Source of the DNA: Candidatus Omnitrophota bacterium
Lineage (GTDB): Bacteria; Omnitrophota; Gorgyraeia; Duberdicusellales; 4484-171
Assembly: GCA_003154195.1 (NCBI GenBank)
Contig: PMCS01000029.1
Span: forward strand, 24,142 to 88,141
Reading direction: 5' to 3'
DNA length: 64,000 nt
Shown here: in pieces, positions 9,400 through 23,219 of the stretch
How positions within the stretch are numbered: position 1 is the first letter of the stretch
How the letters are laid out: every line of letters begins with the position of its first letter
The notes under the pieces: generated by a model
Told to the model about the DNA's origin: nothing
Database searches by the model: none
The model's input: the letters and a program-made list of their open reading frames with translations, nothing else
Position numbers and translations under genes: made by a program

Positions 9400-10716
9400 T
9401 TAAAAGGAATACACCAGGGACGAATTAAGCATCCAATAGCTTGTTTTTACCGTATGGTCTATATCGTCGCTGGCGCCGAGAAGGTAACCCTGGTAATAAA
9501 ATCGCTCTTTTAATTTGCCTTTTGTGTTAATATTAATACAATTAAATCCTAAATTCCAGGTCCAAAACGGATCGATGCGGCAGCTTCCCACGATATCCGC
9601 TAAATATGCTTTTCCTTTGCATACCCCCCGGCTGATCATATCGACGTTGGCGCCCAGAACCGCGTCGGTATCAGGGTAAAGATGCACGTCCTTATCTTTT
9701 ATGCGCACCCACTGCGAAAAGCCGAGCTTAAAATATAAAGTAAATCTTTCCCATGGCGAAATACTTGAAGCTATCCCGATATAAGGCAATTGGGTCTTGA
9801 CGGCATACTCGCACCATTTCAAGTTCTGGGTATCGGTATATCCGGCGTCAAACGGCCCGGGGCCGTAAGGCCCGTAGCCTGCCTGCGCCAGGCTGGTAGA
9901 AGAAAACTTAAACATTTCGTAGCGAAAGCCCGCTAAAACACCCAGGGTATATTTGGGACGAATCAGAAAATTATACAAATAATCCAAGTCGAGCAGGGTT
10001 AAGGCTTCGACGTTTGTATCAGACTCCGAATAAATATCCTTACCGTCATGGTTAGTTGCCCAATTGGCGCTGTTGTTAAGCACGCCGTCGTCGTTGTAAT
10101 CGATATACCCCTTGTCGTTTTGAATCCAATCGGAATCTTTCATCTTGCCGCTGGCCCGGCTGAAGCATTTAAACCAAAATCCCATATCTAATTTATATTT
10201 TGGTTTGTTCTCGTAATCAGGAGAATTAACTCCCAGCGCGCAAAGAACGCCGCTTAAAATGTTATGAATCGGCCATTCCAATGCGCTTTCGCCATGACCG
10301 CCCACAGAATAATCGTTATCAAACATTATATGATACTTCACCTGGCCGCTGATACGGGCCAATTGGAGTCCGAAGGAAATAAACCCGTCTTCACCCAAAA
10401 AGGCTAAGGCTGCCTGTCTAAGTTTCCGGTTGTCGCCGCCGACCGCCTGGATAAATTCTTCTTGCCGGACAACAGGGCCGGCTTTATCCGGGCTGTTTTC
10501 CGCCGCGCCTTCCTGATTCGAATTTTTCCGGCCGGCCTCAACAGCATCAAGATAAACATCTACGGTGGCGGCCTTGGCTTTAGCGTCAATCCCCTGGCTG
10601 AAAACAAAGGAAGGAAAAAGTAGGAAAAAAATGACGAAAAAAAATGAATAAGGATTGTCCGGCTTAAGTATTTTCAAGGGCGAATGGTAAATTTTACAAT
10701 TGTTATCCCTTATCAT
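9400..10716 (-). CDS. putative outer-membrane beta-barrel protein
   Basis: There is an N-terminal hydrophobic signal (FFFVIFFLLFPSFVFSQG) and a C-terminal aromatic residue (SLVYSF) typical of an OMP terminus. Alternating amphipathic strands are seen. A hairpin terminator lies at 9372..9398. Confidence 0.5.
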   Translation of the reverse strand: MIRDNNCKIYHSPLKILKPDNPYSFFFVIFFLLFPSFVFSQGIDAKAKAATVDVYLDAVEAGRKNSNQEGAAENSPDKAGPVVRQEEFIQAVGGDNRKLRQAALAFLGEDGFISFGLQLARISGQVKYHIMFDNDYSVGGHGESALEWPIHNILSGVLCALGVNSPDYENKPKYKLDMGFWFKCFSRASGKMKDSDWIQNDKGYIDYNDDGVLNNSANWATNHDGKDIYSESDTNVEALTLLDLDYLYNFLIRPKYTLGVLAGFRYEMFKFSSTSLAQAGYGPYGPGPFDAGYTDTQNLKWCEYAVKTQLPYIGIASSISPWERFTLYFKLGFSQWVRIKDKDVHLYPDTDAVLGANVDMISRGVCKGKAYLADIVGSCRIDPFWTWNLGFNCININTKGKLKERFYYQGYLLGASDDIDHTVKTSYWMLNSSLVYSF

Positions 10717-10770: not shown

Positions 10771-12213
10771 TCATGCGCCGAACCAACCGGTCACAGGACT
10801 GGGCAACAATCCAATACCGATATGCTTGGATTGGATATATTCGAAAAACCCTTCCCGTCCAAGATTGCGGCCCCAGCCGCTTGCCCGAACGCCGCCGAAA
10901 GGCGTAAGCGAACTCATCTGAACAAAGGAATTCACCCAAACCGTTCCGTAGCTGATCTCTCCGGCGAGCCTTTGGGCATAAGGTAAATCCTTAGTCCAGA
11001 TCTGGCAGACTAAGCCGGTAGGGTTATTTTCAATGATTTCTTCGGCTTCGCGCCGGCCGTTAAAACTTTTGAGCAATACCACCGGCGCGAAAAACTCTTC
11101 GTAGCAGATATTTTTTAATTCGATAACCGTAGCGGGATAAAAATAACCTTTTCCGGCAAGGGGTTTGCCGCCGCATAAAATTACCGCGCCGGTTTTTATC
11201 AATTCGCTCACTTTATTATCGATATCATCCCGGTGTTTTTTCGTCGCTATTGGCCCCAAACCGTTTTCCGGCGCGAACGGGTCGCCGATTTTTATCGCCC
11301 CGGCCTTGCGGACAAGCTCGCGGGAAAACTCCGGATAAATTTTTTCATCCACCAGTGCCAGGCTTGTCCCGATACACATCTGCCCCTGCTTCATAAATGA
11401 CGAACCTAAAATATTTTGCATCGCCGCTTCTTTATCGCAATCGGCAAATACCGCCGCGATGTTGCAGCCGCCTAATTCACAGATTATTTTTTTGGGGTTG
11501 TCGACGGTAGCGGCGATTATCTTTTTCAGCGTTTGGCGCGAACCGGTAAAAGAAATCAAATCGACCGGGCTTTCGGCCAAAGCTTTGCCGATGGTTTCAC
11601 CTCTTCCCGTAACTACGTTAATCAACCCCTTGGGCAAATCTAACCGGTCTAAATGCTTCACCAACTCGAGCAGGGAAAGTGAAGCGAATTCCGAAGGTTT
11701 GATAATTAAAGAATTCCCTGCCGCCAATGCCGCGGCGCCGGTGAAACCAAAAATCATCAACGGCACATTGTAGGGCAGGTAAACGCCGCATACGCCGAAA
11801 GGCTCATATTTGATTAAATCTATCCCGTACTCGCCCGGCAGGCTTTCCTCCTGGATACTTTCCAGAAAAGAAGCGTAATATTTAAAACAATCGGCGCCCA
11901 ATTGGATATCGACAAACAAGGATTCCTTAAACGGTTTACCGATTTCCCGCGTTTCCAAGGTGGCTAAAGTATTCAAATTATCATAAATACACTTGGCGAT
12001 TTCCCGCAACGCCGCCGCCCTTTCCTTGAAGGAAGTTTTTTTCCAGAGTTTTGCCGCTTGCTTCGCGCCGGTAACCGCGGCTTGCAGATCTTTTTCCGAA
12101 GTCTGCGATAGGCGCGCGAAAATTTCTTCCGTGGCGGGATTAACCACATTAATTTTTTCATCGCCTGTTTTAAATTCTCCGGCGATATAATATTTGTATT
12201 CTTCCATAATCAA
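10771..12213 (-). CDS. NAD(P)-dependent aldehyde dehydrogenase
   Basis: ALDH-family motifs are present: ELGGCN, the catalytic-cysteine region FMKQGQMCIGTSL, and the glycine-rich NAD site FTGSRQTLKKI. Confidence 0.85.
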   Translation of the reverse strand: MIMEEYKYYIAGEFKTGDEKINVVNPATEEIFARLSQTSEKDLQAAVTGAKQAAKLWKKTSFKERAAALREIAKCIYDNLNTLATLETREIGKPFKESLFVDIQLGADCFKYYASFLESIQEESLPGEYGIDLIKYEPFGVCGVYLPYNVPLMIFGFTGAAALAAGNSLIIKPSEFASLSLLELVKHLDRLDLPKGLINVVTGRGETIGKALAESPVDLISFTGSRQTLKKIIAATVDNPKKIICELGGCNIAAVFADCDKEAAMQNILGSSFMKQGQMCIGTSLALVDEKIYPEFSRELVRKAGAIKIGDPFAPENGLGPIATKKHRDDIDNKVSELIKTGAVILCGGKPLAGKGYFYPATVIELKNICYEEFFAPVVLLKSFNGRREAEEIIENNPTGLVCQIWTKDLPYAQRLAGEISYGTVWVNSFVQMSSLTPFGGVRASGWGRNLGREGFFEYIQSKHIGIGLLPSPVTGWFGA

Positions 12214-12348: not shown

Positions 12349-13380
12349 CTATTGACGATGCGGTTCGATGATGACCTTAAGCGACTCTTTCGCTTCGGCG
12401 GTAAGCCGAAAACCCAAACCCGTATCGGCTAACGACAGCCGATGGGTGATCATTTTCGATAAAGGAAGCCGCCCGCCGGAAATCAAACCGGCGGCGATAT
12501 TCGCGTCGCTGGGGCTGCTCCCGTAAGAAGGCATCAATTTTATTTCATTGCGCCAGAATTGGTTTAACGGCACCGGTAGATTTACGCCCGGCTCGGTACA
12601 GGCAAAAAACAACACCGTCCCTCCCCGGTCTACCGCGGAAAGCGCCTGGGCAAATGCCGGGAGCGCACCGGTACAGACAATAACCAGATCCGCCGGCCTT
12701 CCCTGGTTACGCTCTTTTACTTTCGCCGCGATATCTTCATTGGCTTTAAACACCGCGTCGGCGCCAAACTCTTGGGCAAATTTAAGGCGATAATCGTTTA
12801 TATCCGTAGAGAAAATTTTTCCGGCGCCGGCGTGGCGCGCGGCAATAAGATGCAGAAGCCCGGATATGCCGCTGCCGATAATCAGTATCGTCTGGCCAAG
12901 TTTGGCCTGAGCCAATCTCTGGCCGCGCAAAACGCAGGCCAGCGGTTCGATAAAAGTTGCGTCCTCGTAAGACATTTCCTTCGGCAAAACCACCACGCCC
13001 CGGTCGACATTCAAGCTGGGAACGCGCAAATACTGCGCGAATCCGCCGGGGTCATAGTTGGTAGTGTGCAGCGTCTCGCAAGCCGTATGATAACCGCTTA
13101 AACAGTAATGACAGGTATTACAGGGAACGTGATGGGCGACGAATATCCGGTCGCCCACCTTATACTGGTTGACCCCTTCCCCGGTTTGTACGATTTGGCC
13201 GCCAATCTCATGGCCTAAAACCAACGGCGCTTTTTTTATGCGGTACCACTCTAGAACGTCGCTGCCGCAAATACCGCTGGCAATCACCTTTACCAGAAGT
13301 TCACCCTTGCCGATTTTCGGTATCGGCCTGGTTTCAATGCGCACATCGCGGTTATTATAATAAACCGCGGCTTGCATCAT
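12349..13380 (-). CDS. zinc-dependent alcohol dehydrogenase of the MDR family (threonine/sorbitol dehydrogenase-like)
   Basis: GICGSDV...GHEIGGQIV carries the Zn ligands, and GSGISGLLHLIAARHAGAG is the Rossmann motif. The start could instead be the upstream ATG at 13416, which has an AGGA ribosome-binding site but would overlap the next gene by 35 nt. Confidence 0.8.
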   Translation of the reverse strand: MMQAAVYYNNRDVRIETRPIPKIGKGELLVKVIASGICGSDVLEWYRIKKAPLVLGHEIGGQIVQTGEGVNQYKVGDRIFVAHHVPCNTCHYCLSGYHTACETLHTTNYDPGGFAQYLRVPSLNVDRGVVVLPKEMSYEDATFIEPLACVLRGQRLAQAKLGQTILIIGSGISGLLHLIAARHAGAGKIFSTDINDYRLKFAQEFGADAVFKANEDIAAKVKERNQGRPADLVIVCTGALPAFAQALSAVDRGGTVLFFACTEPGVNLPVPLNQFWRNEIKLMPSYGSSPSDANIAAGLISGGRLPLSKMITHRLSLADTGLGFRLTAEAKESLKVIIEPHRQ

Positions 13381-13381
13381 C

Positions 13382-14188
13382 TCATTTGCTTTTGCTTTTT
13401 TTATTTTTGGTTTCATTGAAAATATCCTGAGCTTCTTTTATATCGGCATCTTCATGAATAATCGCCCTTAAAGCTTTGGCCATGGCAACAGGGTGGGGGC
13501 TCTGCCAGACGTTCCTGCCCAGGTTGACGCCGATCGCTCCTTTTTGCATTCCATCATAGACAAATTCAAAGACCTGCTTTTCGGTTTCGCATTTCGGGCC
13601 GCCGGCAATCACCACCGGCACCGGGCACCCTTTTACCACTTTATCGAAATCCTTATCGCACCAATAAGTCTTCACCACCCGCGCGCCTAATTCCGCGGCG
13701 ATGCGGCAGCAAAGCGCTAAATAGCGCGCCTCGCGCTTTTCGATCTCTTTGCCGACTGCGGTTACGGCCATCACCGGAATACCGTAGTTCTCGCATTGGT
13801 TGACCAACTGGGCTAGATTATTCAAAGTCTGCTTTTCGTAAGCGCTGCCGATAAACACCGATATACCGACCGCGCTGGCATTGAGCCGAATGATTTCTTC
13901 AATCGAAGTTGTCAAAGCTTCGTCGGCTAAATCCTTACCGACCATGCTGGTGCCGCCGGAAACCCGCAGGATTATCGGCTTAGAACCAACCGCTTCGATG
14001 CAGGAGCGCAAAACCCCCCTGGTGCAAAAGAGCGCGTCGCAGTATTCGATGATCGGCTTTATCGTTTCGCCGGGCTTTTCCAAACCGGTCGTCGGGCCCT
14101 GAAAATAGCCGTGGTCAATCGGCATAAAAAAACATTTTCCGTCCTCTTTAATCAACTGCGATAAGCGATTCTTCATCCCCCAATCCAT
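13382..14188 (-). CDS. DhnA-type class I fructose-bisphosphate aldolase / ADH-synthase family (DeoC/LacD-like TIM barrel)
   Basis: CFFMPIDHGYFQGPTTGLE...ILRVSGGTS...VVKTYW (Schiff-base lysine region)...VVIAGGPK are typical of DhnA / 2-amino-3,7-dideoxy-D-threo-hept-6-ulosonate synthase-type aldolases. Confidence 0.75.
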   Translation of the reverse strand: MDWGMKNRLSQLIKEDGKCFFMPIDHGYFQGPTTGLEKPGETIKPIIEYCDALFCTRGVLRSCIEAVGSKPIILRVSGGTSMVGKDLADEALTTSIEEIIRLNASAVGISVFIGSAYEKQTLNNLAQLVNQCENYGIPVMAVTAVGKEIEKREARYLALCCRIAAELGARVVKTYWCDKDFDKVVKGCPVPVVIAGGPKCETEKQVFEFVYDGMQKGAIGVNLGRNVWQSPHPVAMAKALRAIIHEDADIKEAQDIFNETKNKKSKSK

Positions 14189-14309: not shown

Positions 14310-15314
14310 TTATTCTACGGGAGCCTGTTCCCACAATTTAAACGTCCGCACCATCACCGGATACCATTTGCTCATCTTCGCGAAGTCGCCTTTGGTTTTC
14401 ACCTTGCCCTGGGTAGAGGCAACAAACGGGTCGATTTCGCGGTTAAAAACTTTTCTTAATATTTCCGGCTTGCCGATAATCACAAACTCGGCGTTTTCAT
14501 CATTATCGATTTTCATGATCTTTCCATGCTCATAGACAAACCGTATCACTTCGCCGTTATCCTGGTTCTTCACCGCCAGGGTACAGGTCAAATCATACTT
14601 TCTGCCCAATTCTTGCGCTTCGCTGTCATTGTTGACTATGCCCATCAGCGCCCCGGCATGTTCTTCCGACAGCATCTTATATTTTTTTGTATTTGCCTTT
14701 GCTTCTTCGATAGTTTTTTGCTTCTGGTCTGGTGTCTGTAAATTTGCTGATTTCATCAGCAAATTTACCCTTGCCTGTTCTTCCAGCAATTCGATCAGGC
14801 TGAATGCCGCCTTAAAATCATCTCCCACCGCCACAACCCCGTGGTTTTTTAAAACCACGATATTGGCGTTTTCCAATGCTTCCAATACCGGCTCAATATT
14901 AGTTACGGTGGGCGTATCCTGCGCGATGGCTTTCACCTCGCCCAGATAAAACTTCGCTTCGAAAGAAAAAATATCCAACCGGTCAAAATAGTTAAAAAAC
15001 GCGGTAGTAAAAGAGGGATGCGCGTGCAAGACAACCTTTGTATCTTTAAATTGTTTGTAAATCTCCAGATGAAGCTCCCGCTCCACGCTCGGCTCTTCTT
15101 TTCCTTCTAAGATTTTACCGCCTTCTTCCATCAAGACGATATCGGCCTCCTCTAAAAAGCCCAGATAAGCGTCATGGCCGGTAATCATGATTTTACCTCT
15201 GCCGGCGTTCAGGGAAATATTGCCGCTGCGGCCGATTACCAGATTTTTCGCGCCCAGTAACCGCGCCCAGTAAACTATATCCTTTTTTTCTTGTTCGAAA
15301 TTCATATTTACCAT
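14310..15314 (-). CDS. class II aldolase/adducin-domain protein (FucA/MtnB/Ald2-like) fused to a C-terminal SCP2 sterol-carrier domain
   Basis: The N-terminal roughly 200 aa (GRSGNISLNAGRGKIMITGHDAY...HLEIYKQFKDTKVVLHAHP...LKNHGVVAVG) match the class II aldolase fold. The C-terminus (AEFVIIGKPEILRKVFNREIDPFVASTQGKVKTKGDFAKMSK) matches the SCP2 signature. Confidence 0.8.
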   Translation of the reverse strand: MVNMNFEQEKKDIVYWARLLGAKNLVIGRSGNISLNAGRGKIMITGHDAYLGFLEEADIVLMEEGGKILEGKEEPSVERELHLEIYKQFKDTKVVLHAHPSFTTAFFNYFDRLDIFSFEAKFYLGEVKAIAQDTPTVTNIEPVLEALENANIVVLKNHGVVAVGDDFKAAFSLIELLEEQARVNLLMKSANLQTPDQKQKTIEEAKANTKKYKMLSEEHAGALMGIVNNDSEAQELGRKYDLTCTLAVKNQDNGEVIRFVYEHGKIMKIDNDENAEFVIIGKPEILRKVFNREIDPFVASTQGKVKTKGDFAKMSKWYPVMVRTFKLWEQAPVE

Positions 15315-15579
15315 TTTAATCGGATTTTTTCGAAAGTGAAGTTATAAATTCAACAATATCGGCTGTTTTATTCTTCGCGGCACTAAAACCCCGTTTTTCA
15401 AAACGGGGTACCACCGACGAAGTCGGTGGTATAATTCGACTACAGCCTTGCGCTACGTCCTTCGGGCTTGCGCTCGGCTAAGTCTCATTAATTAACACGG
15501 TGTGCCGCTCTAGAATGAGCCTTGCTGGATACCCCGGTCTTCAGACCGGGGAGTTATGGAAGGCTTCATTTTGCGCGGC

Positions 15580-16905
15580 TCACGGCGTAACGGCATAAAG
15601 CTCATCCAGCGGACTCTTGGGAGCGTTACTCATATCCCGCAGAACATGAGTATAGATCATCGTCGTTTCCACATTCTTATGCCCCAGCAGCTCCTGCACC
15701 TCGCGAATGTTTACCCCGTTCTGCAAAAGATGCGTGGCAAAGCTATGGCGCATGGTATGAACCGTCGCGTGCTTGACAATACCCGCTTTGTTAACCGCGG
15801 CGCGCACCGCCTTCTGTATCGAAGTTTCATCGATATGATGCCGCCTCACCTTACCCGAACGCGGATCAACCGAAAGCTTGCTGGAAGGAAAAACATACTG
15901 CCAGCGCCATTCTTTTCCGGCGTTAGGCATCTTACGCCCTAAGCTGTCCGGTAAAAAAACTTCGCCATATCCGGAAACTAAATCTTTGTCATGAAGTTTT
16001 TTAACTTCTTCCAAATGCAAACGTAATTGCCCCTTAACCGCTTGCGGCAAAATCGTCGACCGATCCTTATCGCCCTTGGCCGCACGGACAAAAATTAAAT
16101 TATTATCGAAATCAATATCCTGCGCGCGAAGCCGCGCCAGTTCCATCAACCGCAAACCCGAGCCATAAAGCACCTGCGCGATCAATAAATCTCTTCCTTT
16201 GATCTGCTTGAATAATTCCTGAACCTCTCTTACCGACAATACCACCGGAAGCTTAAGCCCCCGCTTAGCCCTCACCGTTTTATCTAAATTACCCAGTTCG
16301 GCGCCAAGCACATCGCGAAATAAAAACAATAGCGCGTTAAACGCCTGATTCTGCGTGGATGACGACACTCGCTTATTAATCGCTAAAAACGTAAGAAAAT
16401 CAGTAACATCTTCTGACGATAATCCACTCGAACAAATCTCTTTCTTTTTTACTTCTGCCGTATATTCAAAAAATCGTTTAATCCAATCCAAGTAGGTGCG
16501 TTCCGTGCTGTAAGAAAAATGCTTAACCCGGATTAGCCGGCGGGCCTTCTCTAAAATATCTCCCGGGGTATCAGTGGGATCAGCCGAAATTTCCAAATTA
16601 GACGTTTTCTGCCCTTTAAAATGTTCAAAATAAATCTTCAAAGCATCCTGCGCCTGCCGTAACTGCCATTCGCTGGATTGCGCCCCTTCTAATAAGGCTA
16701 AAAATTTATTCTGCTGTTCGAGAAAAGATAGATTCCCATAATTTTGGGAAAACTTCAAAAACTTATCCACCCAAACCGCGCAATAAGATACATACTTAGA
16801 GTCAGTAAATTTCTTATCCAGCAAAAACTTTTGGAATTCCGGCAATACGTTTTCGTAGGATTTTTTCTTTTCTGCCAAGTTTCCCATGCTATACGGATTC
16901 CGCAT
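15580..16905 (-). CDS. intI: integron integrase (IntI-type tyrosine recombinase) with an N-terminal extension of about 105 aa
   Basis: The C-terminal half [92 protein letters not shown] aligns with IntI1 and VchIntIA. This includes the IntI-specific extra segment between the RHR and HxxR patches and the catalytic RHRY tyrosine. The gene is transcribed divergently from a downstream attC cassette array. Confidence 0.85.
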
Positions 16906-17263
16906 AATCTGATATTATAGAGCAAAGGCGGAACAATTCAATAAGAAAATGATATTTTTAGTGCGTAATCGTCATATTTTTGCTAAAATACACAAGGGTA
17001 CCAAAGAAAACACCGAATCCGTATATTAATTGTTGCGCGAAATCCAAATAATATAGAACCAGTATTTATTTCGCGCAACGCGGAGCTCAGGCTTCGCCGT
17101 TCCGCGCTTTGTCGCGCCTAAATTCAAAAATCGTACGCGCAACAAATCGCTCCAGCGGAATACGCAAAATGTAAGCAGGTAAATGCGCCACCTGTATTAT
17201 CAAAGGAACGCGCACTTACCTGCCACCTACACTTTGCGTATTCCGCTGAGCTCCGCGTTAGGC
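16906..17263. promoter_or_regulatory. putative attI / integron promoter region with nested long inverted repeats, ending at a GTTAGGC core-like site
   Basis: Perfect inverted repeats occur at 17032-17042/17068-17078 (11 bp), 17077-17090/17246-17259 (14 bp) and 17153-17168/17233-17248 (16 bp). GTTAGGC (matching GTTRRRY) lies at 17257-17263, about 10 nt before the first cassette ATG (17274). Confidence 0.4.
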
Positions 17264-17273
17264 CAAAAAATAA

Positions 17274-17861
17274 ATGAAAATTATTGCAATAATAGCGCTG
17301 GTCATTGGTGGATTGATTTCTTCTGGTAATTGGTCTACGATTTATCAATCACACAAAGACAAAAGACACGTTTCAACAATTCCTATTTTAGGAGCTATAT
17401 TCCTCGGCATTGGCCTAACATATTTTAAAGCAACTAGACCGCTTGCCTTGCTATGCTTGATTGCTGACTATGGAACGCTGCTCCTTATTATTTCAACTCC
17501 GCGGCTAATAAACGAAGCCTGGAAAACTAGCCGGTTTAATTTGGTTAACGCCCTTGCCGGTTGTTCCCAGTATACTGAATATAAATTAAATCTTTATAAA
17601 AAGGGAATTTTTGTAATCAGGGCAAAAGTTAATCCTCCTCAAGCAACCAATGAGCATGGCGCCTTAATCAAAGAGTTTGGTTTTGAAAGGCAATGGGAAC
17701 AAAAGAAAAACGTTATTGTTTTAAGCCGATATGCAAACAATAGAGAGGTTACACTAGTGCAAAGCAATAATAAATATATCTCCAGAGAAAGTAATTATCC
17801 CAAAGACAGAAAATGTAATTATGATATGTTGGATGGTATCGAATTTACAAAAAACGCCTAA
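17274..17861 (+). CDS. integron cassette ORF: hypothetical membrane-anchored protein (195 aa)
   Basis: It is the first ORF after the GTTAGGC junction. It is AT-rich relative to the flanking chromosome. There are two N-terminal hydrophobic helices and no recognisable family. Confidence 0.55.
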   Translation: MKIIAIIALVIGGLISSGNWSTIYQSHKDKRHVSTIPILGAIFLGIGLTYFKATRPLALLCLIADYGTLLLIISTPRLINEAWKTSRFNLVNALAGCSQYTEYKLNLYKKGIFVIRAKVNPPQATNEHGALIKEFGFERQWEQKKNVIVLSRYANNREVTLVQSNNKYISRESNYPKDRKCNYDMLDGIEFTKNA

Positions 17862-17951
17862 CAATTTCATCCAGCGGATTTTGCCTACGGCACCCGAAAT
17901 TTTCCCGCAAAAACATTAAAAATATGTTATAATTTGTTTGGAGGCAATCTT

Positions 17952-18170
17952 ATGAAAATAACCGATATCCCTAAAATTTCTCGCTTAAGTATAGCCGAAA
18001 AAATTTTATTCGTAGAAGAACTGTGGGATTCTATCTCGTCCAACAAACGCATCCCTGTCCCTGAATCTCATAAGGCGGAGCTGGATAGAAGGCTGCTTAA
18101 ATACCAAAACAATCGGGGACGCCTACTCTCCTTGAAAGAACTGCAAGCGCGAATAGAAAAAAGAAAATAA
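17952..18170 (+). CDS. antitoxin, putative addiction-module component (CHP02574-like), partner of the ParE/RelE toxin
   Basis: MKITDIPKISRLSIAEKILFVEELWDSISS...ELDRRLLKYQNNRGRLLSLKELQARIEKRK matches the small 'putative addiction module component' antitoxin family. A GGAGG ribosome-binding site and a TGTTATAAT -10-like box lie upstream. The stop is 3 nt before the toxin start. Confidence 0.7.
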   Translation: MKITDIPKISRLSIAEKILFVEELWDSISSNKRIPVPESHKAELDRRLLKYQNNRGRLLSLKELQARIEKRK

Positions 18171-18172
18171 CC

Positions 18173-18484
18173 ATGGGTTATTCGTTATCATTCCTTCCTG
18201 AAGTTGAAGAAGACGCTATCGGCGCGTATCTTTGGTATGAAGAAAAATCCCAAGGCCTCGGCGAAGATTTATTAAGAATATTTTATGCCGGCGCCGCTGA
18301 AATAGCCAGAACTCCCAATCTTTATCCCAGAGTCTATAAAAACTTCCATCGCAAACTTCTTAAACGCTTCCCCTACGCTGTCTATTTTTTTGTTGAAAGA
18401 AAAACTATTATCGTTTACGGATTATTCCATTGCGCCAGAAATCCGTATTTAATACAAGAAAAAATAAACAATAGACACTCCTAA
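18173..18484 (+). CDS. ParE/RelE-family toxin
   Basis: LSFLPEVEEDAIGAYLWYEEKS...FPYAVYFFVERKTIIVYGLFHCARNP fits the ParE/RelE fold consensus. It is immediately downstream of the antitoxin and its stop overlaps the start of the attC. Confidence 0.7.
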   Translation: MGYSLSFLPEVEEDAIGAYLWYEEKSQGLGEDLLRIFYAGAAEIARTPNLYPRVYKNFHRKLLKRFPYAVYFFVERKTIIVYGLFHCARNPYLIQEKINNRHS

Positions 18485-18608
18485 CCAGAAAATCCAGCCG
18501 ACCTGAACCGTTCTGCTTCGCGCTTTATTAGGAAGCATAGTCGCGTTGACGCGCTTCGCAGCAACGAGCCGGCACGAACGGTTCAGGCGGCTGATTATTG
18601 TGTTAGAC
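18479..18608 (+). repeat. integron attC site 1 (about 130 bp, imperfect palindrome, ends GTTAGAC)
   Basis: It begins with CCTAACC overlapping the toxin stop codon. The arm ATCCAGCCGACCTGAACC pairs with GGTTCAGGCGGCTGAT with a bulge, and the site ends ...TGTGTTAGAC. It is homologous to the sites at 19078, 19715 and 20163. Confidence 0.75.
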
Positions 18609-18644
18609 ATAAATAATTAATATAAAAACAAAAAAGGAGGGAAA

Positions 18645-19067
18645 ATGGATAAATTAACGAGAGAAGCTCAAGAACATGGTGAAATTTTTGAATCATTAAT
18701 CTTTTTCGAAAAATTAATACCTGTCTTGTCTGATAAAAATATTGAAAAATTCAAAAGCTTTCTCGATGAACATGCTGAGGATCATTTTGAATTTGAAGAA
18801 AAAGAAATATTCCCAATAATATTAGACAAAGGAACAAATGAAGAAAAAAATTTAATCGAAGAGTTACAAAGTCAGCATAAAGAAATACTGGATATGATCA
18901 ATCAATTAGATAAACTAGTGTCTACCCATGGCGCATCTTCCTCTGGAAATAATAAAGAAAAAATCATGAAACTGAACACAAAAATAATTGAATCACTGCT
19001 TGCGCATGCTCGTAAGGAAGATACTGAGATATTCCCTATTTTTAAAAAATATGGAAACAACATTTAA
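18645..19067 (+). CDS. cassette ORF: hemerythrin-like (HHE cation-binding) protein (140 aa)
   Basis: Repeated H...E / H..H..E spacing (EHGEIFE, DEHAEDHFEFEE, QSQHKEILD, LLAHARKEDTEIF) suggests a hemerythrin-like four-helix bundle. It is very AT-rich. An AAGGAGGG ribosome-binding site lies upstream. Confidence 0.45.
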   Translation: MDKLTREAQEHGEIFESLIFFEKLIPVLSDKNIEKFKSFLDEHAEDHFEFEEKEIFPIILDKGTNEEKNLIEELQSQHKEILDMINQLDKLVSTHGASSSGNNKEKIMKLNTKIIESLLAHARKEDTEIFPIFKKYGNNI

Positions 19068-19077
19068 AATAACAAAT

Positions 19078-19210
19078 GTCTAACCATCAAATCCAGCCGA
19101 CCTGAACCGCTTCTGCTTCGCCCTTTGTTAGGCAAGTAATAGCGTTGATGGGCTTCGCAGAAACAGGGGCACGGAAGGAGTGGTTCAGGCGGCTGATTAT
19201 ATTGTTAGAA
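19078..19210 (+). repeat. integron attC site 2 (about 133 bp, ends GTTAGAA)
   Basis: GTCTAACCATCAAATCCAGCCGACCTGAACC ... GGTTCAGGCGGCTGATTATATTGTTAGAA is about 85% identical to attC site 1. Confidence 0.75.
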
Positions 19211-19277
19211 CCAATAAAATAATAAAAAACTCGAAAAACAAAGGAAAATATGGTAGACTTAAATAGAGGTGGGAACA

Positions 19278-19484
19278 ATGAGCGAAATTATATTTATTAT
19301 TGAAAATTCCGACGAAGGCGGCTACACCGCCAAAGCCCTCGGTTATTCCATTTATACCGAGGCAGAAACCATGGAAGAGCTGAAAGAAAACATTAAAGAC
19401 GCGGTAAAATGCCACATTGACGCTAAAGAACTACCCCATATCGTTCGTCTTCACATGGTAAAAGACGAAGTAATGGCGATATGA
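19278..19484 (+). CDS. hicB: HicB-family antitoxin (UPF0150)
   Basis: MSEIIFIIENSDEGGYTAKALGYSIYTEAETMEELKENIKDAVKCHI matches the HicB N-terminal RNase-H-like fold consensus (EGGYTAxxPxLPGCxTxGETxEEAxxNxKEAI). A GAGGTGG ribosome-binding site lies upstream. It overlaps hicA by 4 nt. Confidence 0.7.
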   Translation: MSEIIFIIENSDEGGYTAKALGYSIYTEAETMEELKENIKDAVKCHIDAKELPHIVRLHMVKDEVMAI

Positions 19485-19720
19485 GACTACCCAGAGAAAT
19501 TAGCGGCGAAGAACTGGCAAAACTTCTCAAAAAATACGCCTACGAAATTACCCGACAAACCGGCAGCCACATGCGGCTTACTACCACCCTTCAAGGCGAA
19601 CACCACATTACCATCCCTGCGCATAAATATCTTAAAATCGGCACATTAAACGGAATTCTGTCCGATGTTGCCAATCATTTCAAAATAGATAAAAACGATT
19701 TAATTAAAGAATTGTTCTAA
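19481..19720 (+). CDS. hicA: HicA-family mRNA interferase toxin
   Basis: ISGEELAKLLKKYAYEITRQTGSHMRLT...ITIPAHKYLKIGTLNGILSDV matches HicA (xLxKxGWxxxRxxGSHxxxxHP...VPxHxxDLxxGTLxSILKQA). The ATGA overlap indicates translational coupling with hicB. Confidence 0.7.
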   Translation: MRLPREISGEELAKLLKKYAYEITRQTGSHMRLTTTLQGEHHITIPAHKYLKIGTLNGILSDVANHFKIDKNDLIKELF

Positions 19721-19797
19721 CCAACAAATCCAGCCGACCCTGCTCCGCCGTCGCTTCGCTCCTGGCTTCGCAGAGGCGGCTGATTTTTGTGTTAAAT
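19715..19797 (+). repeat. integron attC site 3 (short, about 83 bp, ends GTTAAAT)
   Basis: TTCTAACCAACAAATCCAGCCGACC ... GGCGGCTGATTTTTGTGTTAAAT. It has the same left and right arms as the other attC sites but a shorter centre. Confidence 0.7.
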
Positions 19798-19839
19798 AAT
19801 AAATGGGAATAACAACACGCTTTGATATAATGATTATAG

Positions 19840-20019
19840 ATGAATAAAAGAATCATAAAAATAACAAGCATTAAGAATAAGGACAATGCGTTTGCTTATT
19901 GGCTTTCAAAGCCGGCTAGCGAACGTATCGAAGCCGTCGAGATACTAAGGAAACAGCTCAATGGAAACGCAAAAAGATTTCAAAGAACTATTAGAATTAT
20001 TCAACAAGCACAAGGTTAA
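19840..20019 (+). CDS. small cassette ORF (59 aa), hypothetical
   Basis: The ATG at 19840 gives MNKRIIKITSIKNKDNAFAYWLSKPASERIEAVEILRKQLNGNAKRFQRTIRIIQQAQG. It falls below the 60-aa cut-off of the ORF track and overlaps the downstream pseudogene in another frame. Confidence 0.3.
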   Translation: MNKRIIKITSIKNKDNAFAYWLSKPASERIEAVEILRKQLNGNAKRFQRTIRIIQQAQG

Positions 20020-20162
20020 ATACATAATCGTCGGCGCCTACGCTCTGGCATTCCCATGGAAACACACCCGCCTACTTTATCGGCAAAAATGATTTTATCG
20101 TAAACAAAAAGTCCCTAGGCCGGCATAAAGACATGGCTGACATAGAATCTATCACTGAATAA
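19961..20162 (+). pseudogene. decayed cassette gene: nucleotidyltransferase-fold protein fragment with an internal deletion or frameshift
   Basis: The N-terminal piece METQKDFKELLELFNKHKVKYIIVGAYALAF matches the small nucleotidyltransferase family (LLxLLNxxxVxYLVIGGYA). After a frame break, only the C-terminal piece VNKKSLGRHKDMADIESITE* (RPKDLADIE-like) remains in a different frame. Confidence 0.4.
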
Positions 20163-20219
20163 TCATTTAACAAGCCAGCCGACCTCGCCTACGGCGGGCG
20201 ACGAATTTTTGTGTTAGAA
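20163..20219 (+). repeat. integron attC site 4 (short, about 57 bp, ends GTTAGAA)
   Basis: AAGCCAGCCGACCTCGCCTACGGCGGGCGACGAATTTTTGTGTTAGAA shares the CCAGCCGACC left arm and TTTTTGTGTTAGAA right end. Confidence 0.6.
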
Positions 20220-20231
20220 AAGGGAAAAACA

Positions 20232-20825
20232 ATGAAATGGGTAGCTGTTTCACTATTGCTCATGATAACCCTGGGGATAAATTCCAGTGTGGAGCCGGCA
20301 TCATCTGCCGCTCAAGATGAACACATCGAAAAACTCATCCAAGCGTTATACACGCATCCCTGGCCGGGCGCGGAAATGTTTGCCGAGCCGATGGAGTGGG
20401 ATTTTCACTTCACCGAGCCGATACAGGCCCTGCTCGAAATCGGCGCGGCGGCTCAGAAACCGCTTTTAGCGCGGCTTTCGGATCCGGCGATAACGGACCA
20501 GGTCATTTTTTTGCTGGGTGGTGTCGGCGACGAAGAGTCGGTTGGCCCGATAATCGCCGCGATGGAACAGGCGTCAAACCTGCCGGCAGAAAAACGTAAA
20601 AGAATCCTCGAGGTGGGAAATTTGGCACTGACGAATATCACCGTAGCGGATATAATCTGGCACCATGGAGGCGGTATTGTCCTTGACCGCTGCCCGGATG
20701 ACCCGGCCCAATGCTGGGCCCAATGGTGGAAACAAAATAAGGCGACTTTTCGGGTGCGCGATATAAAACAAAGCCGGCGCTACAGCAACTACCCGGGCTA
20801 TGGCATCTATAAAGGCCTGCCGTAA
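20232..20825 (+). CDS. cassette ORF: secreted hypothetical protein (197 aa)
   Basis: MKWVAVSLLLMITLGINSSVEPASSA is a signal peptide. The ATG at 20232 lies just after the attC core. The longer track ORF starts at GTG inside the attC. Confidence 0.55.
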   Translation: MKWVAVSLLLMITLGINSSVEPASSAAQDEHIEKLIQALYTHPWPGAEMFAEPMEWDFHFTEPIQALLEIGAAAQKPLLARLSDPAITDQVIFLLGGVGDEESVGPIIAAMEQASNLPAEKRKRILEVGNLALTNITVADIIWHHGGGIVLDRCPDDPAQCWAQWWKQNKATFRVRDIKQSRRYSNYPGYGIYKGLP

Positions 20826-20966
20826 ACTCCTGTCACCGTTTTCCAACAAATCGTTTCAGCGCACCCGCGAAAAGCGCGAACCGCTTGATTCTTTCTTTAT
20901 AGCCCTACCTTGCGGTGATGATAATTTATATAAGAAAAGCGGAATTGGCGAAAAAGACAGGAAGCG

Positions 20967-21470
20967 TCAGCTTTTGGTCCTGAGGTCAACAGAAACAGTC
21001 AGCATCGGTATTTCGATAAATTCGTCATCCGCCGGAATAATCGAATCGGCTTTATTCGGCGCCGCGATAAATGCCTTGCCCCCCAAAACCGAAACATCGT
21101 CTTTAAATAAACCCGCGGGGGCATTGCCTTGAAGAAAAATCGAAATGGGAACATTATGGAGTTTGCTTAACATCGCGGCATAAAGGCTTCCGGCAATTGC
21201 GGTAATGCCCTGGTCGGTTTTAGTTTTGTAAAAAATCATCGTTTTGGCGATTTTATTTTTATAGAACAACATCCCCAGGGTGTTATCGGTGCAATACACA
21301 AACGACAACTCGGCGCGTTTTAAAATAGACATATTGTATTTAAGCCCCAGCATAAACGGCCGGTTTTCCGGCAGAATCACCAGATTTCTTTGCCGGCGAA
21401 GTTCCATCACCCCCTCGGGAGATATCGGGCCCCAGATTAAAAATGCGTTATTAATATTTTCTAATTTCAT
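20967..21470 (-). CDS. truncated eIF-2B/MtnA-family paralog (C-terminal-domain-like, 167 aa)
   Basis: ENRPFMLGLKYNMSILKRAELSFVYCTDNTLGMLF...GITAIAGSLYAAMLSKLHNVPISIF aligns weakly with the ETRPxLQGxRLTxWEL...GADR...NKxGTYxxAxxAKxHxxPFY region of the adjacent full-length gene. The catalytic residues are not conserved. Confidence 0.45.
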   Translation of the reverse strand: MKLENINNAFLIWGPISPEGVMELRRQRNLVILPENRPFMLGLKYNMSILKRAELSFVYCTDNTLGMLFYKNKIAKTMIFYKTKTDQGITAIAGSLYAAMLSKLHNVPISIFLQGNAPAGLFKDDVSVLGGKAFIAAPNKADSIIPADDEFIEIPMLTVSVDLRTKS

Positions 21471-21486
21471 AATTAATACTTATATC

Positions 21487-22392
21487 TTATTCAAAAAGAT
21501 TAAGCTCGATCGGTTTGGTGACAAAATCGCCTTTAGTAATATCGAACGCCGGGTATACCGCGTCGACCTGGGAAAAATCTCCCCCTAAAAACATAAACGT
21601 TTCTTCTTTCGGCCTTTCTTCAATCGGGATTGCGTCGATATTAATCTTTATGGGGTACTGAGTTAAAGGATAAAAAGGTATCCCAAAGTGTTTAGCCAGG
21701 CGCGCTATCGCGTAGGTGCCTAATTTATTGATGACATCATTGCCGACGGTAGCGCGGTCGGCGCCGGTTACCACGCAGTTAACGATACCGTTCCGCATCA
21801 AGCTTGCCGCCTGGTTGTCGCAAAGAACTTTTACCGGGATATTATTTTTCTGCAGTTCCCAATAAGTCAGGCGCGTACCCTGCAAATACGGCCGCGTTTC
21901 CGAAACATAAAAACAGGCTTTTTTCCCGAGTTGGGTTAATTCTTCATAAAGATAGAGCAATTCGCCGTTAACATTGCAAATGGTTAGAATATTGGCGGGA
22001 TCGGGCAGGATTTGCGCCAAAGCCAGGCAGCGTTTTTTCCTTGCCCGGTCAAAAGCCCACACAAAGCTTTCCACGGCGTCTTTCACCGTTACCCCGTTGC
22101 CGGTCTGGCGCTTGATAATCGAGGCAAGCGTGTCGAAATCGAAGGTCGGCCGCACCGCCTTGAATTGGCCGCAAATATAATCGACAGTTGTCTCCTGCCG
22201 GAATAAGGCGCAGGAATAAAAAAACAGGAGCACCTGGCCCAGGGAACGGGTCTTCATTTCTTTCAAAACCCACAACGCTTTCGGCAAACCGGTAACTTCG
22301 ATATACTCTTCCTTAAAAGGGATAAGGGTTTCATCCAGAACGACAATCTTATTATCTTTTATTTGAACGGGAAATAAGAGTGGGCTTTCCAT
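21487..22392 (-). CDS. eIF-2B alpha/beta/delta-family sugar-phosphate isomerase (MtnA / 5-deoxyribose-1-P isomerase-like)
   Basis: ETRPYLQGTRLTYWELQKNNIPVKVLCDNQAASLM...VVTGADRATVGNDVINKLGTYAIARLAKHFGIPFYPL...IPIEERPKEE matches the methylthioribose-1-phosphate isomerase signatures. Confidence 0.75.
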   Translation of the reverse strand: MESPLLFPVQIKDNKIVVLDETLIPFKEEYIEVTGLPKALWVLKEMKTRSLGQVLLFFYSCALFRQETTVDYICGQFKAVRPTFDFDTLASIIKRQTGNGVTVKDAVESFVWAFDRARKKRCLALAQILPDPANILTICNVNGELLYLYEELTQLGKKACFYVSETRPYLQGTRLTYWELQKNNIPVKVLCDNQAASLMRNGIVNCVVTGADRATVGNDVINKLGTYAIARLAKHFGIPFYPLTQYPIKINIDAIPIEERPKEETFMFLGGDFSQVDAVYPAFDITKGDFVTKPIELNLFE

Positions 22393-22418: not shown

Positions 22419-23219
22419 TTATATTAGCTTTTTATAAAGCTTCCTTATTTTCGGCGTGACGGTGAATTTATCGATATTAAAAGACCGGTCTGCTGCCTGC
22501 GCCACCGGCATTATTCCCATCAACGAGCTGGTCAAGAATACTTCATCGCAGTTAAGCAAATCGGTTTTCGTAAATTCTCCTTCGACAATCTTTATTTTAT
22601 TATCCCGGCAGATATCGATAACGGCTTTCCGGGTGACGCCGGCCAGCAAACCGCAGGAAAGGCCGGGTGTAAAAACTTTCTTATTTTTTACTAAAAAAAT
22701 ATTACTGCGGCTGCCTTCCTGTAGAAACCATCTTTCATTCAAAAAAATAGCCTCTTCTTTTTGCTGTTTTTGCGCGGCCAGCCAGGCAATCCGGTTTTTC
22801 ACATAACTCAAAGATTTGACACTCAAAAATTCGTCTTTGGAGTAGCGGATGATATCGGAAAATATTATTTTTGCCCCTTTCTGGTAATCCTCTTCCTTGT
22901 AATAATCAAATTCCGAAACCTGGATGATACAGCCGGCGCCTTTCCTTTTTTTAAAAACATTGATCCGCACGTAAGCATCCTCCAAATCATTTTGAGCCAT
23001 AAGGCTCAAAATGATTTGCTTATAATCTAAATCAGGGCATTCTAATTGCAAAAATTTAGCACCGTCCCTTAAACGGCCGATATGTTCATTCAGAAAAGGA
23101 ATATTTCCGCCGCGCGGCCGGAAAGTCTCGAACACCCCCCAGCCGAATAAATATCCCGGCTCAAGAACTTCCCCCAACGTTTCTTTTTCAACAAATTGAT
23201 TATTACAATATATTTTCAT
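22419..23219 (-). CDS. class IV aminotransferase (BCAT / D-aminotransferase / ADC-lyase fold)
   Basis: The GWGVFETFR motif and a length of 266 aa are consistent with a fold-type IV PLP enzyme. Confidence 0.7.
   Translation of the reverse strand: MKIYCNNQFVEKETLGEVLEPGYLFGWGVFETFRPRGGNIPFLNEHIGRLRDGAKFLQLECPDLDYKQIILSLMAQNDLEDAYVRINVFKKRKGAGCIIQVSEFDYYKEEDYQKGAKIIFSDIIRYSKDEFLSVKSLSYVKNRIAWLAAQKQQKEEAIFLNERWFLQEGSRSNIFLVKNKKVFTPGLSCGLLAGVTRKAVIDICRDNKIKIVEGEFTKTDLLNCDEVFLTSSLMGIMPVAQAADRSFNIDKFTVTPKIRKLYKKLI

Follow-up and report, generated by a model that had tools for sequence, protein, structure and literature searches.

A class II aldolase fused to an SCP2 domain

We analysed 64,000 nucleotides (the window) of contig PMCS01000029.1, positions 24,142 to 88,141, from a Candidatus Omnitrophota bacterium (assembly GCA_003154195.1), and identified a gene that encodes a class II aldolase fused to an SCP2 lipid-carrier domain. 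A first-pass annotation, made from the sequence alone, had proposed this domain pair. It had not noted that the gene lies on the minus strand, that it belongs to a conserved operon, or that an integron is inserted within that operon. The plus-strand frame over the same positions is riddled with stop codons, and the intact open reading frame (ORF) is that of the minus strand. Both peptide strings quoted in the first-pass annotation (HLEIYKQ...HAHP and AEFVIIGKPEILRKVFNREIDPFVASTQGKVKTKGDFAKMSK) are found in its translation. The features of the locus are collected in Table 1.

Alignments to homologs span 99% of the protein, and since the same full-length architecture was found in 74 independent genomes, the possibility that the ORF is a chimera or a frameshift artefact was rejected. 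The AlphaFold2 model of the whole protein is confident (predicted local distance difference test, pLDDT, 91.9; predicted template-modelling score 0.83), with low confidence only within the linker, at residues 197-202 (pLDDT < 50).

Table 1 Features of the fusion locus and its surroundings (positions of the window)
Feature	Position	Strand	Basis or remark
Class II aldolase-SCP2 fusion gene	14310-15314	minus	334 aa and stop, ATG start; ORF list, translation, Pfam
Class II (metal-dependent) aldolase domain, residues 1-190	14745-15314	minus	Pfam PF00596, DrdA alignment, invariant columns, Foldseek
Linker, residues 191-213	14676-14744	minus	variable, low confidence
SCP2-fold domain, residues 214-334	14313-14675	minus	Pfam PF02036, profile against PDB, model on 2CX7
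B12-binding radical SAM enzyme, BchE/HpnJ-like	24220-25683	minus	below all equivalog cut-offs
Amidohydro_2 family protein	23227-24114	minus	Pfam
Class IV aminotransferase-fold protein	22419-23219	minus	in the slot of the PNP_UDP_1 phosphorylase of other loci
MtnA/DrdI-like (IF-2B family) ribose-1-phosphate isomerase	21487-22392	minus	Pfam, NCBIfam; best PDB match MTR-1-P isomerase 1T9K, E 9e-35
Small IF-2B-like protein, 167 aa, E-x-RP motif	20967-21470	minus	weak IF-2B/MtnA matches of its ortholog
Integron, intI and cassette array	15580-20900	intI minus, cassettes plus	between the small IF-2B-like and fusion genes
Integron integrase intI	15580-16905	minus	TIGR02249, 409 bits against a cut-off of 265
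attC-like sites	18481-18610, 19080-19212, 19717-19799, ~20160-20221	plus-strand array	repeats
Weaker attC-like sites	17854-17935, 20839-20900	plus-strand array	repeats
Three GC-rich hairpins in a row	15400-15560	minus	between the intI stop and the fusion start
LsrF-like class I aldolase/thiolase	13382-14188	minus	directly downstream; P-HPD thiolase model NF006081, 367 bits (cut-off 297); E. coli LsrF 3GKF, E 2e-78
Zn-dependent alcohol dehydrogenase	12349-13416	minus	overlaps the LsrF-like gene
NAD(P)-dependent aldehyde dehydrogenase	10771-12213	minus	Pfam Aldedh, E 1e-126; most constant downstream partner
Omptin-like beta-barrel	9400-10716	minus	follows the aldehyde dehydrogenase; in locus L086 follows DUF1302
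Second B12-binding radical SAM protein, 560 aa	5409-7091	minus	unrelated to the first
ORF of 1312 aa	756-4694	minus	no Pfam match

Catalytic domain

The N-terminal aldolase assignment was borne out by Pfam, in which Aldolase_II (PF00596) matched residues 12-184 over profile positions 2-182/183 (E 1.1e-34, 120.3 bits against a gathering score of 22.2), and by fold, the full-length model matching FucA, DrdA and other class II aldolase-fold structures in Foldseek with target-normalised template-modelling (TM) scores of 0.79-0.84 (0.81-0.84 for FucA/DrdA structures). By sequence, the nearest solved structure is DrdA, the 5-deoxyribulose-1-phosphate aldolase of Bacillus thuringiensis (PDB 6BTD/6BTG; E 1e-15, about 26% identity; PMC6079011). 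The three histidine metal ligands and the catalytic glutamate expected of the PF00596 superfamily are present: Glu78, His97, His99 and His158, invariant in 63 homologs, align with Glu76, His95, His97 and His157 of DrdA, the residues named in PMC7162832. The tyrosine that serves as general acid in FucA/DrdA-type enzymes was not found; at the position of FucA Tyr113 at least 90% of the sequences carry Phe118, next to which stands an invariant Glu119.

None of the NCBIfam equivalog cut-offs for known aldolases was reached. The best model was NF040649 (FucA_Meth, archaeal, MJ1418-type) with 108.5 bits against a cut-off of 250, TIGR01086 (fucA) gave 35.7 bits against 400, and the MtnB models matched only in part (TIGR03328, 55.5 bits against 137; NF006672 likewise). 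The protein thus falls outside every curated threshold for FucA, DrdA or MtnB. We predict it to be a divalent-metal-dependent ketose-1-phosphate aldolase of the FucA/DrdA type, with a complete SCP2 domain where such enzymes usually end in a short tail. A genuine fuculose or rhamnulose pathway was considered and rejected, as sugar genes are absent and the scores lie far below the cut-offs; the name "L-fuculose-phosphate aldolase", under which some homologs are deposited, is very probably wrong as to the substrate.

Identity and conservation of the SCP2 domain

The Pfam match of the C-terminal domain to SCP2 (PF02036) was marginal, covering residues 232-317 with E 5.4e-05 and 23.9 bits against a gathering score of 21.3, and the homologs scored 18-33 bits, part of them under the threshold. 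The identity of the domain was therefore tested independently. A single-sequence search of PDB with the C-terminal 141 residues returned only noise (E > 0.2). A profile made from 16 relatives of the C-domain matched SCP2 of Thermus thermophilus (2CX7/1WFR) with E 2e-8 and, more weakly, archaeal SCP2 (AF_1534) and mammalian SCP2 (E 5e-4 to 6e-3). Because the top 50 Foldseek matches of the full-length model were aldolases only, residues 205-334 were also modelled separately with AlphaFold2, from an alignment of the C-domain against full-length homologs. This model (pLDDT 91.7) superposed on 2CX7 with a TM score of 0.83 and a root-mean-square deviation of 1.7 Å, and all of its 46 fold matches at E < 0.005 were of the SCP2 type (UbiJ, alkylsulfatase C-domains, MFE-2, insect and yeast SCP2). 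The domain also carries the characteristic SCP2 motif DP..A..QGK.K.KG. With the marginal Pfam match, the profile and the model in agreement, the SCP2 domain named in the first-pass annotation is confirmed.

The SCP2 domain is under strong purifying selection. Mean pairwise identity among homologs is 67.6% over residues 214-334, with 53 of 121 columns at least 90% conserved, compared with 60.0% over the catalytic domain (residues 10-190; 51 of 181 columns) and 14% over the linker (residues 191-213; none of 23 columns). That the domain is better conserved than the catalytic one argues for a specific, selected role and not for a passive appendage. The conserved residues include the aromatics F259, Y261, F277, F290, F297, W317, F325 and W328, along with many polar ones.

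Such a role need not be ligand binding. The domain may instead serve as a docking module for a protein partner, such as an acyl carrier protein (ACP), the aldehyde dehydrogenase (ALDH) or the FadD-like ligase of the cluster described below, or for a membrane surface, and thereby assemble a metabolon, a role that UbiJ has in the synthesis of ubiquinone. The many conserved polar and basic residues (such as K304/K306/K308/K313 and D295/D310), unusual for a generic lipid pocket, would fit this idea, as would the presence of UbiJ-SCP2 among the best fold matches and the tight adjacency of the ALDH gene. However, UbiJ itself binds lipids, docking and ligand binding are compatible with each other, and many loci that keep the fusion are without ACP genes; we regard docking as an improbable explanation of the domain.

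A search with the C-domain alone against 1.84 billion representative proteins gave matches in just 64 clusters. In the full-length matches, each of about 320-340 aa, the domain lies C-terminally, and Aldolase_II was detected in all nine that were scanned; the remaining matches are either short and fragmentary or come from a few long repetitive proteins in which several stretches match weakly. Thus, this subtype of SCP2 is found essentially only in the aldolase fusion. One metagenomic protein of 694 aa (P0126) combines a B12 radical SAM (S-adenosylmethionine) domain, Aldolase_II, SCP2 and a fragment of histidinol dehydrogenase, with the radical SAM and aldolase domains truncated. An artefact of assembly or a frameshift is the probable explanation, although P0126 could be a real fusion of genes that are neighbours in the cluster.

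Distribution and previous annotation

More than 120 full-length homologs with 54-66% identity were found, nearly all from metagenome-assembled genomes of Candidatus Omnitrophota. Their names go no further than "class II aldolase/adducin family protein" or "L-fuculose-phosphate aldolase", and both Pfam domains are precomputed for many of them. A scan of species-representative genomes retrieved 80 loci (L-numbered), 74 with the fusion and 6 in which the aldolase, of about 192-210 aa, stands unfused and shares 52-58% identity with the N-domain. The fused loci form two subfamilies, with 51-64% and 35-46% identity to the query. Omnitrophota predominate among the hosts of the 80 loci; many hosts carry the NCBI label "uncultured Planctomycetia", and a small number are bins of Desulfobacterota/Deltaproteobacteria, Elusimicrobia, Victivallales or Clostridia.

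A full-text literature search found no description of a class II aldolase-SCP2 fusion or of its gene cluster. The first-pass annotation, which knew of no description of the fusion, is borne out by the literature, but the databases contain more than 120 public homologs, many of them with both domains annotated. Its own refuting condition, a common and already annotated architecture, applies by half: the architecture is common within one phylum and annotated at the level of domains, but has no functional annotation. We thus confirm a real fusion, widespread in one phylum and public, yet functionally unannotated and without description in the searchable literature.

A conserved gene cluster around the fusion gene

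The neighbourhoods were examined with Pfam tables for six relatives and a phmmer screen of all loci; the counts below, out of the 74 fused loci, are lower bounds because of contig ends. The fusion gene stands in a constant, co-directional cluster with the core order B12 radical SAM enzyme, Amidohydro_2, Aminotran_4 or PNP_UDP_1, IF-2B/MtnA-like isomerase, small IF-2B-like protein, fusion, ALDH. The isomerase is present upstream in 70 loci and the ALDH in 63, immediately downstream of the fusion gene in 56 of them. They are followed in frequency by the B12 radical SAM enzyme (52), Amidohydro_2 (45), the small IF-2B-like protein (40, every one directly upstream), the PNP_UDP_1 phosphorylase (34) and Aminotran_4 (17). 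Phosphorylase and Aminotran_4 share the slot between Amidohydro_2 and IF-2B and never occur in the same locus.

The 40 loci in which the small IF-2B-like gene adjoins or overlaps the fusion gene belong to the closer subfamily; the gene was not detected in the subfamily with 35-41% identity. Its product (about 160 aa; ortholog in L086 at 9526-10008) resembles a truncated C-terminal domain of MtnA/IF-2B and may be a partner subunit of the isomerase. The gene set of the dihydroxyacetone phosphate (DHAP) shunt or 5-deoxyribose disposal consists of DrdK or MtnP, DrdI/MtnA and DrdA/Ald2; in the loci, the phosphorylase is DeoD-like, not MtnP-like, and no kinase was seen.

An optional 5′ part of the cluster comprises two ketosynthases (KS), ACP, Cyclase, Polyketide_cyc2, MFS and a short-chain dehydrogenase/reductase (SDR); KS, ACP and SDR were counted in 26, 28 and 37 loci, respectively, and the KS is FabF-like. 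Optional genes after the ALDH are an LsrF-like gene with a Zn-dependent alcohol dehydrogenase (Zn-ADH), always as a pair (11 loci); MMPL, DUF1329/TP_0789-like and DUF1302 genes (MMPL in 20, DUF1329 in 19 and DUF1302 in 17); a FadD-like ligase (25); and a 4HBT thioesterase. The ligase scored best as a long-chain-fatty-acid-CoA ligase (418 bits, under the cut-off of 476) and not as an acetyl-CoA synthetase. The transporter is an HAE3/MMPL-type protein of the resistance-nodulation-division (RND) family with a sterol-sensing domain. In Pseudomonas, DUF1302 and DUF1329 genes have been tied to fatty-ester and envelope(-lipid) phenotypes. A minimal form of the cluster is seen, for example, in L086 (4752-17336), which has ligase, radical SAM enzyme, phosphorylase, isomerase, small IF-2B-like protein, fusion, ALDH, MMPL, DUF1329, DUF1302 and an omptin-like barrel.

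Several loci, among them L008, L015, L016, L027 (3-17763), L035 and L036, contain a large co-directional cluster that is conserved across Omnitrophota. It includes two FabF-like KS, ACP, a PF04199 "cyclase", an SRPBCC Polyketide_cyc2 protein, MFS, SDR, B12 radical SAM and Amidohydro_2 genes and, at its 3′ end, MMPL, DUF1329/TP_0789-like, DUF1302 and hotdog thioesterase genes. Together these genes resemble a system, so far undescribed, for making and exporting a lipid or polyketide.

In L077 (7808-15202), L065 and L079, an unfused ortholog of 192 aa (52-58% identity) lies in an operon with a FadD-like ligase, PNP_UDP_1, MMPL, DUF1329 and DUF1302. Its genes overlap by a few bases, which in L077 and L065 suggests translational coupling; neither an isomerase, nor a radical SAM enzyme, nor SCP2 was detected in this operon. 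In PDB, the radical SAM enzyme of the cluster gave only generic matches (AprD4, TokK), and so did the ALDH (retinal, betaine and phenylacetaldehyde dehydrogenases); these matches do not fix a substrate. The hopanoid side-chain pathway was kept as an analogy only, as HpnH and SHC were not seen and the scores for HpnG (46 against 187 bits) and HpnN (64 against 752 bits) were low.

The upstream isomerase raises the question of whether the catalytic domain is an aldolase in vivo, or whether it converts the product of the isomerase as an MtnB-like dehydratase or as a decarboxylase or epimerase sharing this fold. The route might then resemble anaerobic methionine salvage, or be another one, with the class IV aminotransferase as the last enzyme. 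An MtnA-like gene precedes mtnB in mtnA-mtnB pairs as well, and the window is among the 17 loci with Aminotran_4. The partial MtnB matches and the change of FucA Tyr113 to Phe118 beside an invariant Glu119 point the same way; the MtnB/APIP family uses a glutamate near this position. However, the MtnB score is far below its cut-off while FucA-type models score higher, the aldolase-typical Glu78 is invariant, and neither an enolase-phosphatase nor an acireductone dioxygenase occurs among the Pfam-annotated neighbours in six relative loci and the scanned genes of the window. The ALDH that comes next in 56 loci calls for an aldehyde, not for a dehydratase product. A dehydratase, which the first-pass annotation had offered as an alternative, is therefore disfavoured, and we consider this reading very unlikely.

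Neighbouring genes in the window

On the minus strand of the window, the order of genes is MFS, SDR, radical SAM, Amidohydro_2, Aminotran_4, IF-2B, small IF-2B-like protein, fusion, LsrF-like, Zn-ADH, ALDH and omptin-like barrel. The isomerase, the conserved upstream partner, is here separated from the fusion gene by the integron. The PNP_UDP_1 phosphorylase is absent from the window.

The LsrF-like and Zn-ADH genes suggest a CoA-dependent variant of the DHAP shunt. As a purely chemical conjecture, oxidation of the C4 hydroxyl of 5-deoxyribulose-1-phosphate by the Zn-ADH would give 3-hydroxy-2,4-pentanedione-5-phosphate (P-HPD), the substrate of LsrF, and thiolysis of P-HPD by the LsrF-like enzyme would yield DHAP and acetyl-CoA or, more generally, X-acetyl-CoA, in which X is the substituent at C5. 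As the same end product would be reached through aldolase, ALDH and ligase, the two branches would converge. No literature that joins LsrF to methylthioribulose or 5-deoxyribulose was found.

Predicted reaction of the fusion aldolase

Our preferred reading, which we hold with a confidence slightly short of even, is that the fusion protein is a DrdA-like aldolase that splits a 5-substituted ribulose-1-phosphate into DHAP and a hydrophobic aldehyde, its SCP2 domain holding the apolar part. The adenosyl part of SAM would be the source of the substrate, which the MtnA-like isomerase, fed by the phosphorylase in many genomes, would supply as a 5-substituted 5-deoxyribulose-1-phosphate. The fusion aldolase would cleave this ketose phosphate to DHAP and an aldehyde X-CH2-CHO, with X being apolar and bound by the SCP2 domain, which would either recruit the amphipathic substrate or hold the poorly soluble aldehyde. 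The adjacent ALDH would oxidise the X-aldehyde to the acid, which in many genomes the FadD-like ligase would activate for FabF/ACP chemistry and for export by MMPL/LolA-like proteins. The analysis establishes the two domains, the intact catalytic residues, the strong purifying selection on SCP2 and the conserved order of genes, whereas the reaction, the direction of its flux, the nature of X and the part played by SCP2 are inferred.

In support of this scheme, the ALDH gene directly downstream points to an aldehyde product and hence to aldol cleavage rather than to dehydration of the MtnB type. As for the substituent, an apolar X is the most economical explanation of the fixed and conserved SCP2 domain, of a ligase that is FadD-like and not of the acetate type, and of the recurrent coupling to FabF/ACP and to RND/LolA-like/outer-membrane export. 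Further hints of a hydrophobic product are the sterol-sensing domain of the transporter, the FabF-like KS, the Pseudomonas phenotypes of DUF1302/DUF1329 genes, and the unfused ortholog of L077 and L065, whose gene overlaps those of ligase, phosphorylase and MMPL. In FucA, a mobile C-terminal tail closes over the aldehyde pocket, and a C-terminal fusion is therefore topologically near that pocket; by analogy, the SCP2 domain, which follows the last helix of the aldolase fold, would take the position of the mobile tail. The hydrophobic or lipid-linked substrate or product suggested in the first-pass annotation gains real support, which is indirect and comes from the FadD-like ligase, FabF/ACP and MMPL/DUF1329/DUF1302 exporter of relatives. 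Its other idea, a carrier for a volatile product, gained no specific support.

Several observations speak against our preferred reading. None of the FabF, ACP, ligase and MMPL genes lies within the 64-kb window, so that the lipid context rests on relatives. The unfused ortholog occurs in a similar cluster without SCP2, and the domain is dispensable in that context. The fusion is also found without any partner gene in L046 (Elusimicrobia) and L047 (Clostridia). The B12 radical SAM enzyme is the sole candidate for joining X to C5′, and its matches to BchE, HpnJ and AprD4 are distant and concern other chemistry. Finally, Phe118 in place of the tyrosine of FucA and DrdA suggests that the catalytic details differ from those of characterised aldolases.

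The main rival is an ordinary DHAP shunt that disposes of 5-deoxyribose. Here, 5′-deoxyadenosine from the radical SAM enzyme, and/or methylthioadenosine or S-adenosylhomocysteine, would be converted to DHAP and acetaldehyde or (methylthio)acetaldehyde, ALDH and ligase would turn the aldehyde into the acid and the CoA ester, and SCP2, without binding the substrate, would cap the structure, mediate oligomerisation or tether the protein to a membrane. Among solved structures DrdA is the closest to the catalytic domain, and phosphorylase, isomerase and aldolase would correspond to the gene set of the drd/DHAP shunt (PMC6079011). The radical SAM enzyme, a stoichiometric producer of 5′-deoxyadenosine, is present in most of the loci, the cluster in the window is without lipid genes, and an unfused ortholog exists. 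In addition, the Zn-ADH and the LsrF-like thiolase could, on chemical grounds, take 5-deoxyribulose-1-phosphate through P-HPD to DHAP and acetyl-CoA. On the other hand, disposal leaves unexplained why SCP2 is fixed and better conserved than the catalytic domain. The ligase is FadD-like and not acetyl-CoA synthetase-like, the phosphorylase is not MtnP-like, and the equivalog cut-offs of known aldolases are all missed. The phosphorylase and aldolase genes, moreover, overlap the gene of an RND lipid-type exporter, suggesting translational coupling. We consider disposal a rather unlikely account of the fusion.

The preferred cleavage of an apolar-substituted ribulose-1-phosphate can be extended to a complete route, which we put forward as a speculation with a low probability. 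An apolar acceptor would receive the adenosyl group of SAM through C5′, and the B12 radical SAM enzyme may be the one to attach it; adenine would be removed by phosphorolysis, the ribose-1-phosphate isomerised, and DHAP trimmed off by the SCP2-aldolase, whose SCP2 domain would hold the lipid during cleavage, leaving a C2 aldehyde on the lipid. This would then be oxidised, activated by a FadD-like ligase, elongated by FabF/ACP and exported by MMPL/LolA-like/DUF1302 proteins, and SAM would thereby serve as a C2 donor for an envelope lipid of Omnitrophota.

Comparison with known systems

The fusion family shares with DrdA/Ald2 of the DHAP shunt the fold, the metal and acid-base residues, the MtnA-like isomerase partner and, in many loci, a phosphorylase, here DeoD-like. 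However, DrdA has only one domain (about 210 aa in all), lacks SCP2 and carries Tyr where the fusion family has Phe118; its clusters include a kinase or MtnP, but no linked genes for ALDH, a FadD-like ligase, FabF/ACP or MMPL exporters. In case of FucA (E. coli 1FUA, NF040649), the likeness extends to a TM score of about 0.8, the Zn/Mn ligands and conserved phosphate-binding motifs, whereas no fucose genes lie near the fusion gene and the FucA tail contrasts with a linker and an SCP2 domain of 120 aa.

The alpha/beta fold of SCP2 is common to the alkylsulfatases SdsA1/Pisa1, MFE-2/SCPx, UbiJ/UbiT and Thermus SCP2 (2CX7), and in the alkylsulfatases and MFE-2 the domain likewise lies C-terminal to a catalytic domain that acts on amphipathic substrates. 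The family described here differs from these SCP2 enzymes in that the partner is a class II aldolase, in a conservation far above that usual for SCP2 domains, and in that its lipid binding is putative.

In the fluoroacetate pathway of Streptomyces cattleya, a phosphorylase, an MtnA-like isomerase, a fuculose-type aldolase and an ALDH act on 5′-fluoro-5′-deoxyadenosine. The enzymes of the Omnitrophota cluster would by analogy work in the same order, from a 5′-X-5′-deoxyadenosine through X-acetaldehyde to X-acetate. Lipid or aryl groups are attached to C5′ of adenosine in the HpnH/HpnG system and in futalosine synthesis and release (MqnE/MqnB), with release by enzymes of the PNP_UDP_1 family. 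Among the annotated cluster neighbours, no fluorinase or chlorinase and no HpnH- or MqnE-type enzyme turned up. To our knowledge, an SCP2-fused aldolase is used in none of these pathways (fluorometabolite, Hpn, Mqn).

Class II aldolases are normally soluble, single-domain enzymes that act on small sugar phosphates. A conserved lipid-carrier aldolase in an operon of this kind points beyond the known schemes of DHAP shunt and methionine salvage. Should the substrate prove amphipathic, lipid or polyketide metabolism would be making use, in a new way, of ribose from by-products or adducts of SAM, and the function of a conserved gene cluster would become approachable for the first time in the Omnitrophota, of which no member has been cultured; if the enzyme serves plain disposal of 5′-deoxyadenosine, the fusion would be a curious domain accretion. 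What makes the fusion gene interesting is not so much its pair of domains as the conserved and uncharacterised Omnitrophota cluster that it marks.

An integron within the operon

The conserved operon is interrupted just upstream of the fusion gene by a chromosomal integron, which is not part of the enzyme system. In the window, about 5.65 kb separate the fusion gene from the small IF-2B-like gene, and no comparable insertion was found in the 74 fused relative loci. The integrase has an N-terminal extension of about 116 aa relative to the TIGR02249 model. An attI-like region was located within this stretch, together with at least four to six attC-like sites (CTAACCA...CCAGCCGACC / GGCGGCTGAT...GTTAGAC), which form the repeat families D1/D2 with inverted arms. 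The cassettes encode an uncharacterised membrane protein of 195 aa, a PF09720 antitoxin with a 103-aa partner, a hemerythrin, a pair of 71 and 79 aa, and a protein of 204 aa. The genes flanking the integron are all intact, the small IF-2B-like protein being about 8 residues longer at its C-terminus.

Downstream of the operon, on the same strand, lie the 1312-aa ORF and the second radical SAM protein listed in Table 1. A simple promoter and terminator scan near the fusion gene gave nothing above the shuffle expectation and did not flag the three hairpins (CCCCGGTCTGAAGACCGGGG, CCACCGACTTCGTCGGTGG, ACCCCGTTTTGAAAAACGGGGTTTT) between intI and the fusion gene. These hairpins may be terminators or repetitive extragenic palindromic (REP)-like elements that insulate the downstream half of the operon.

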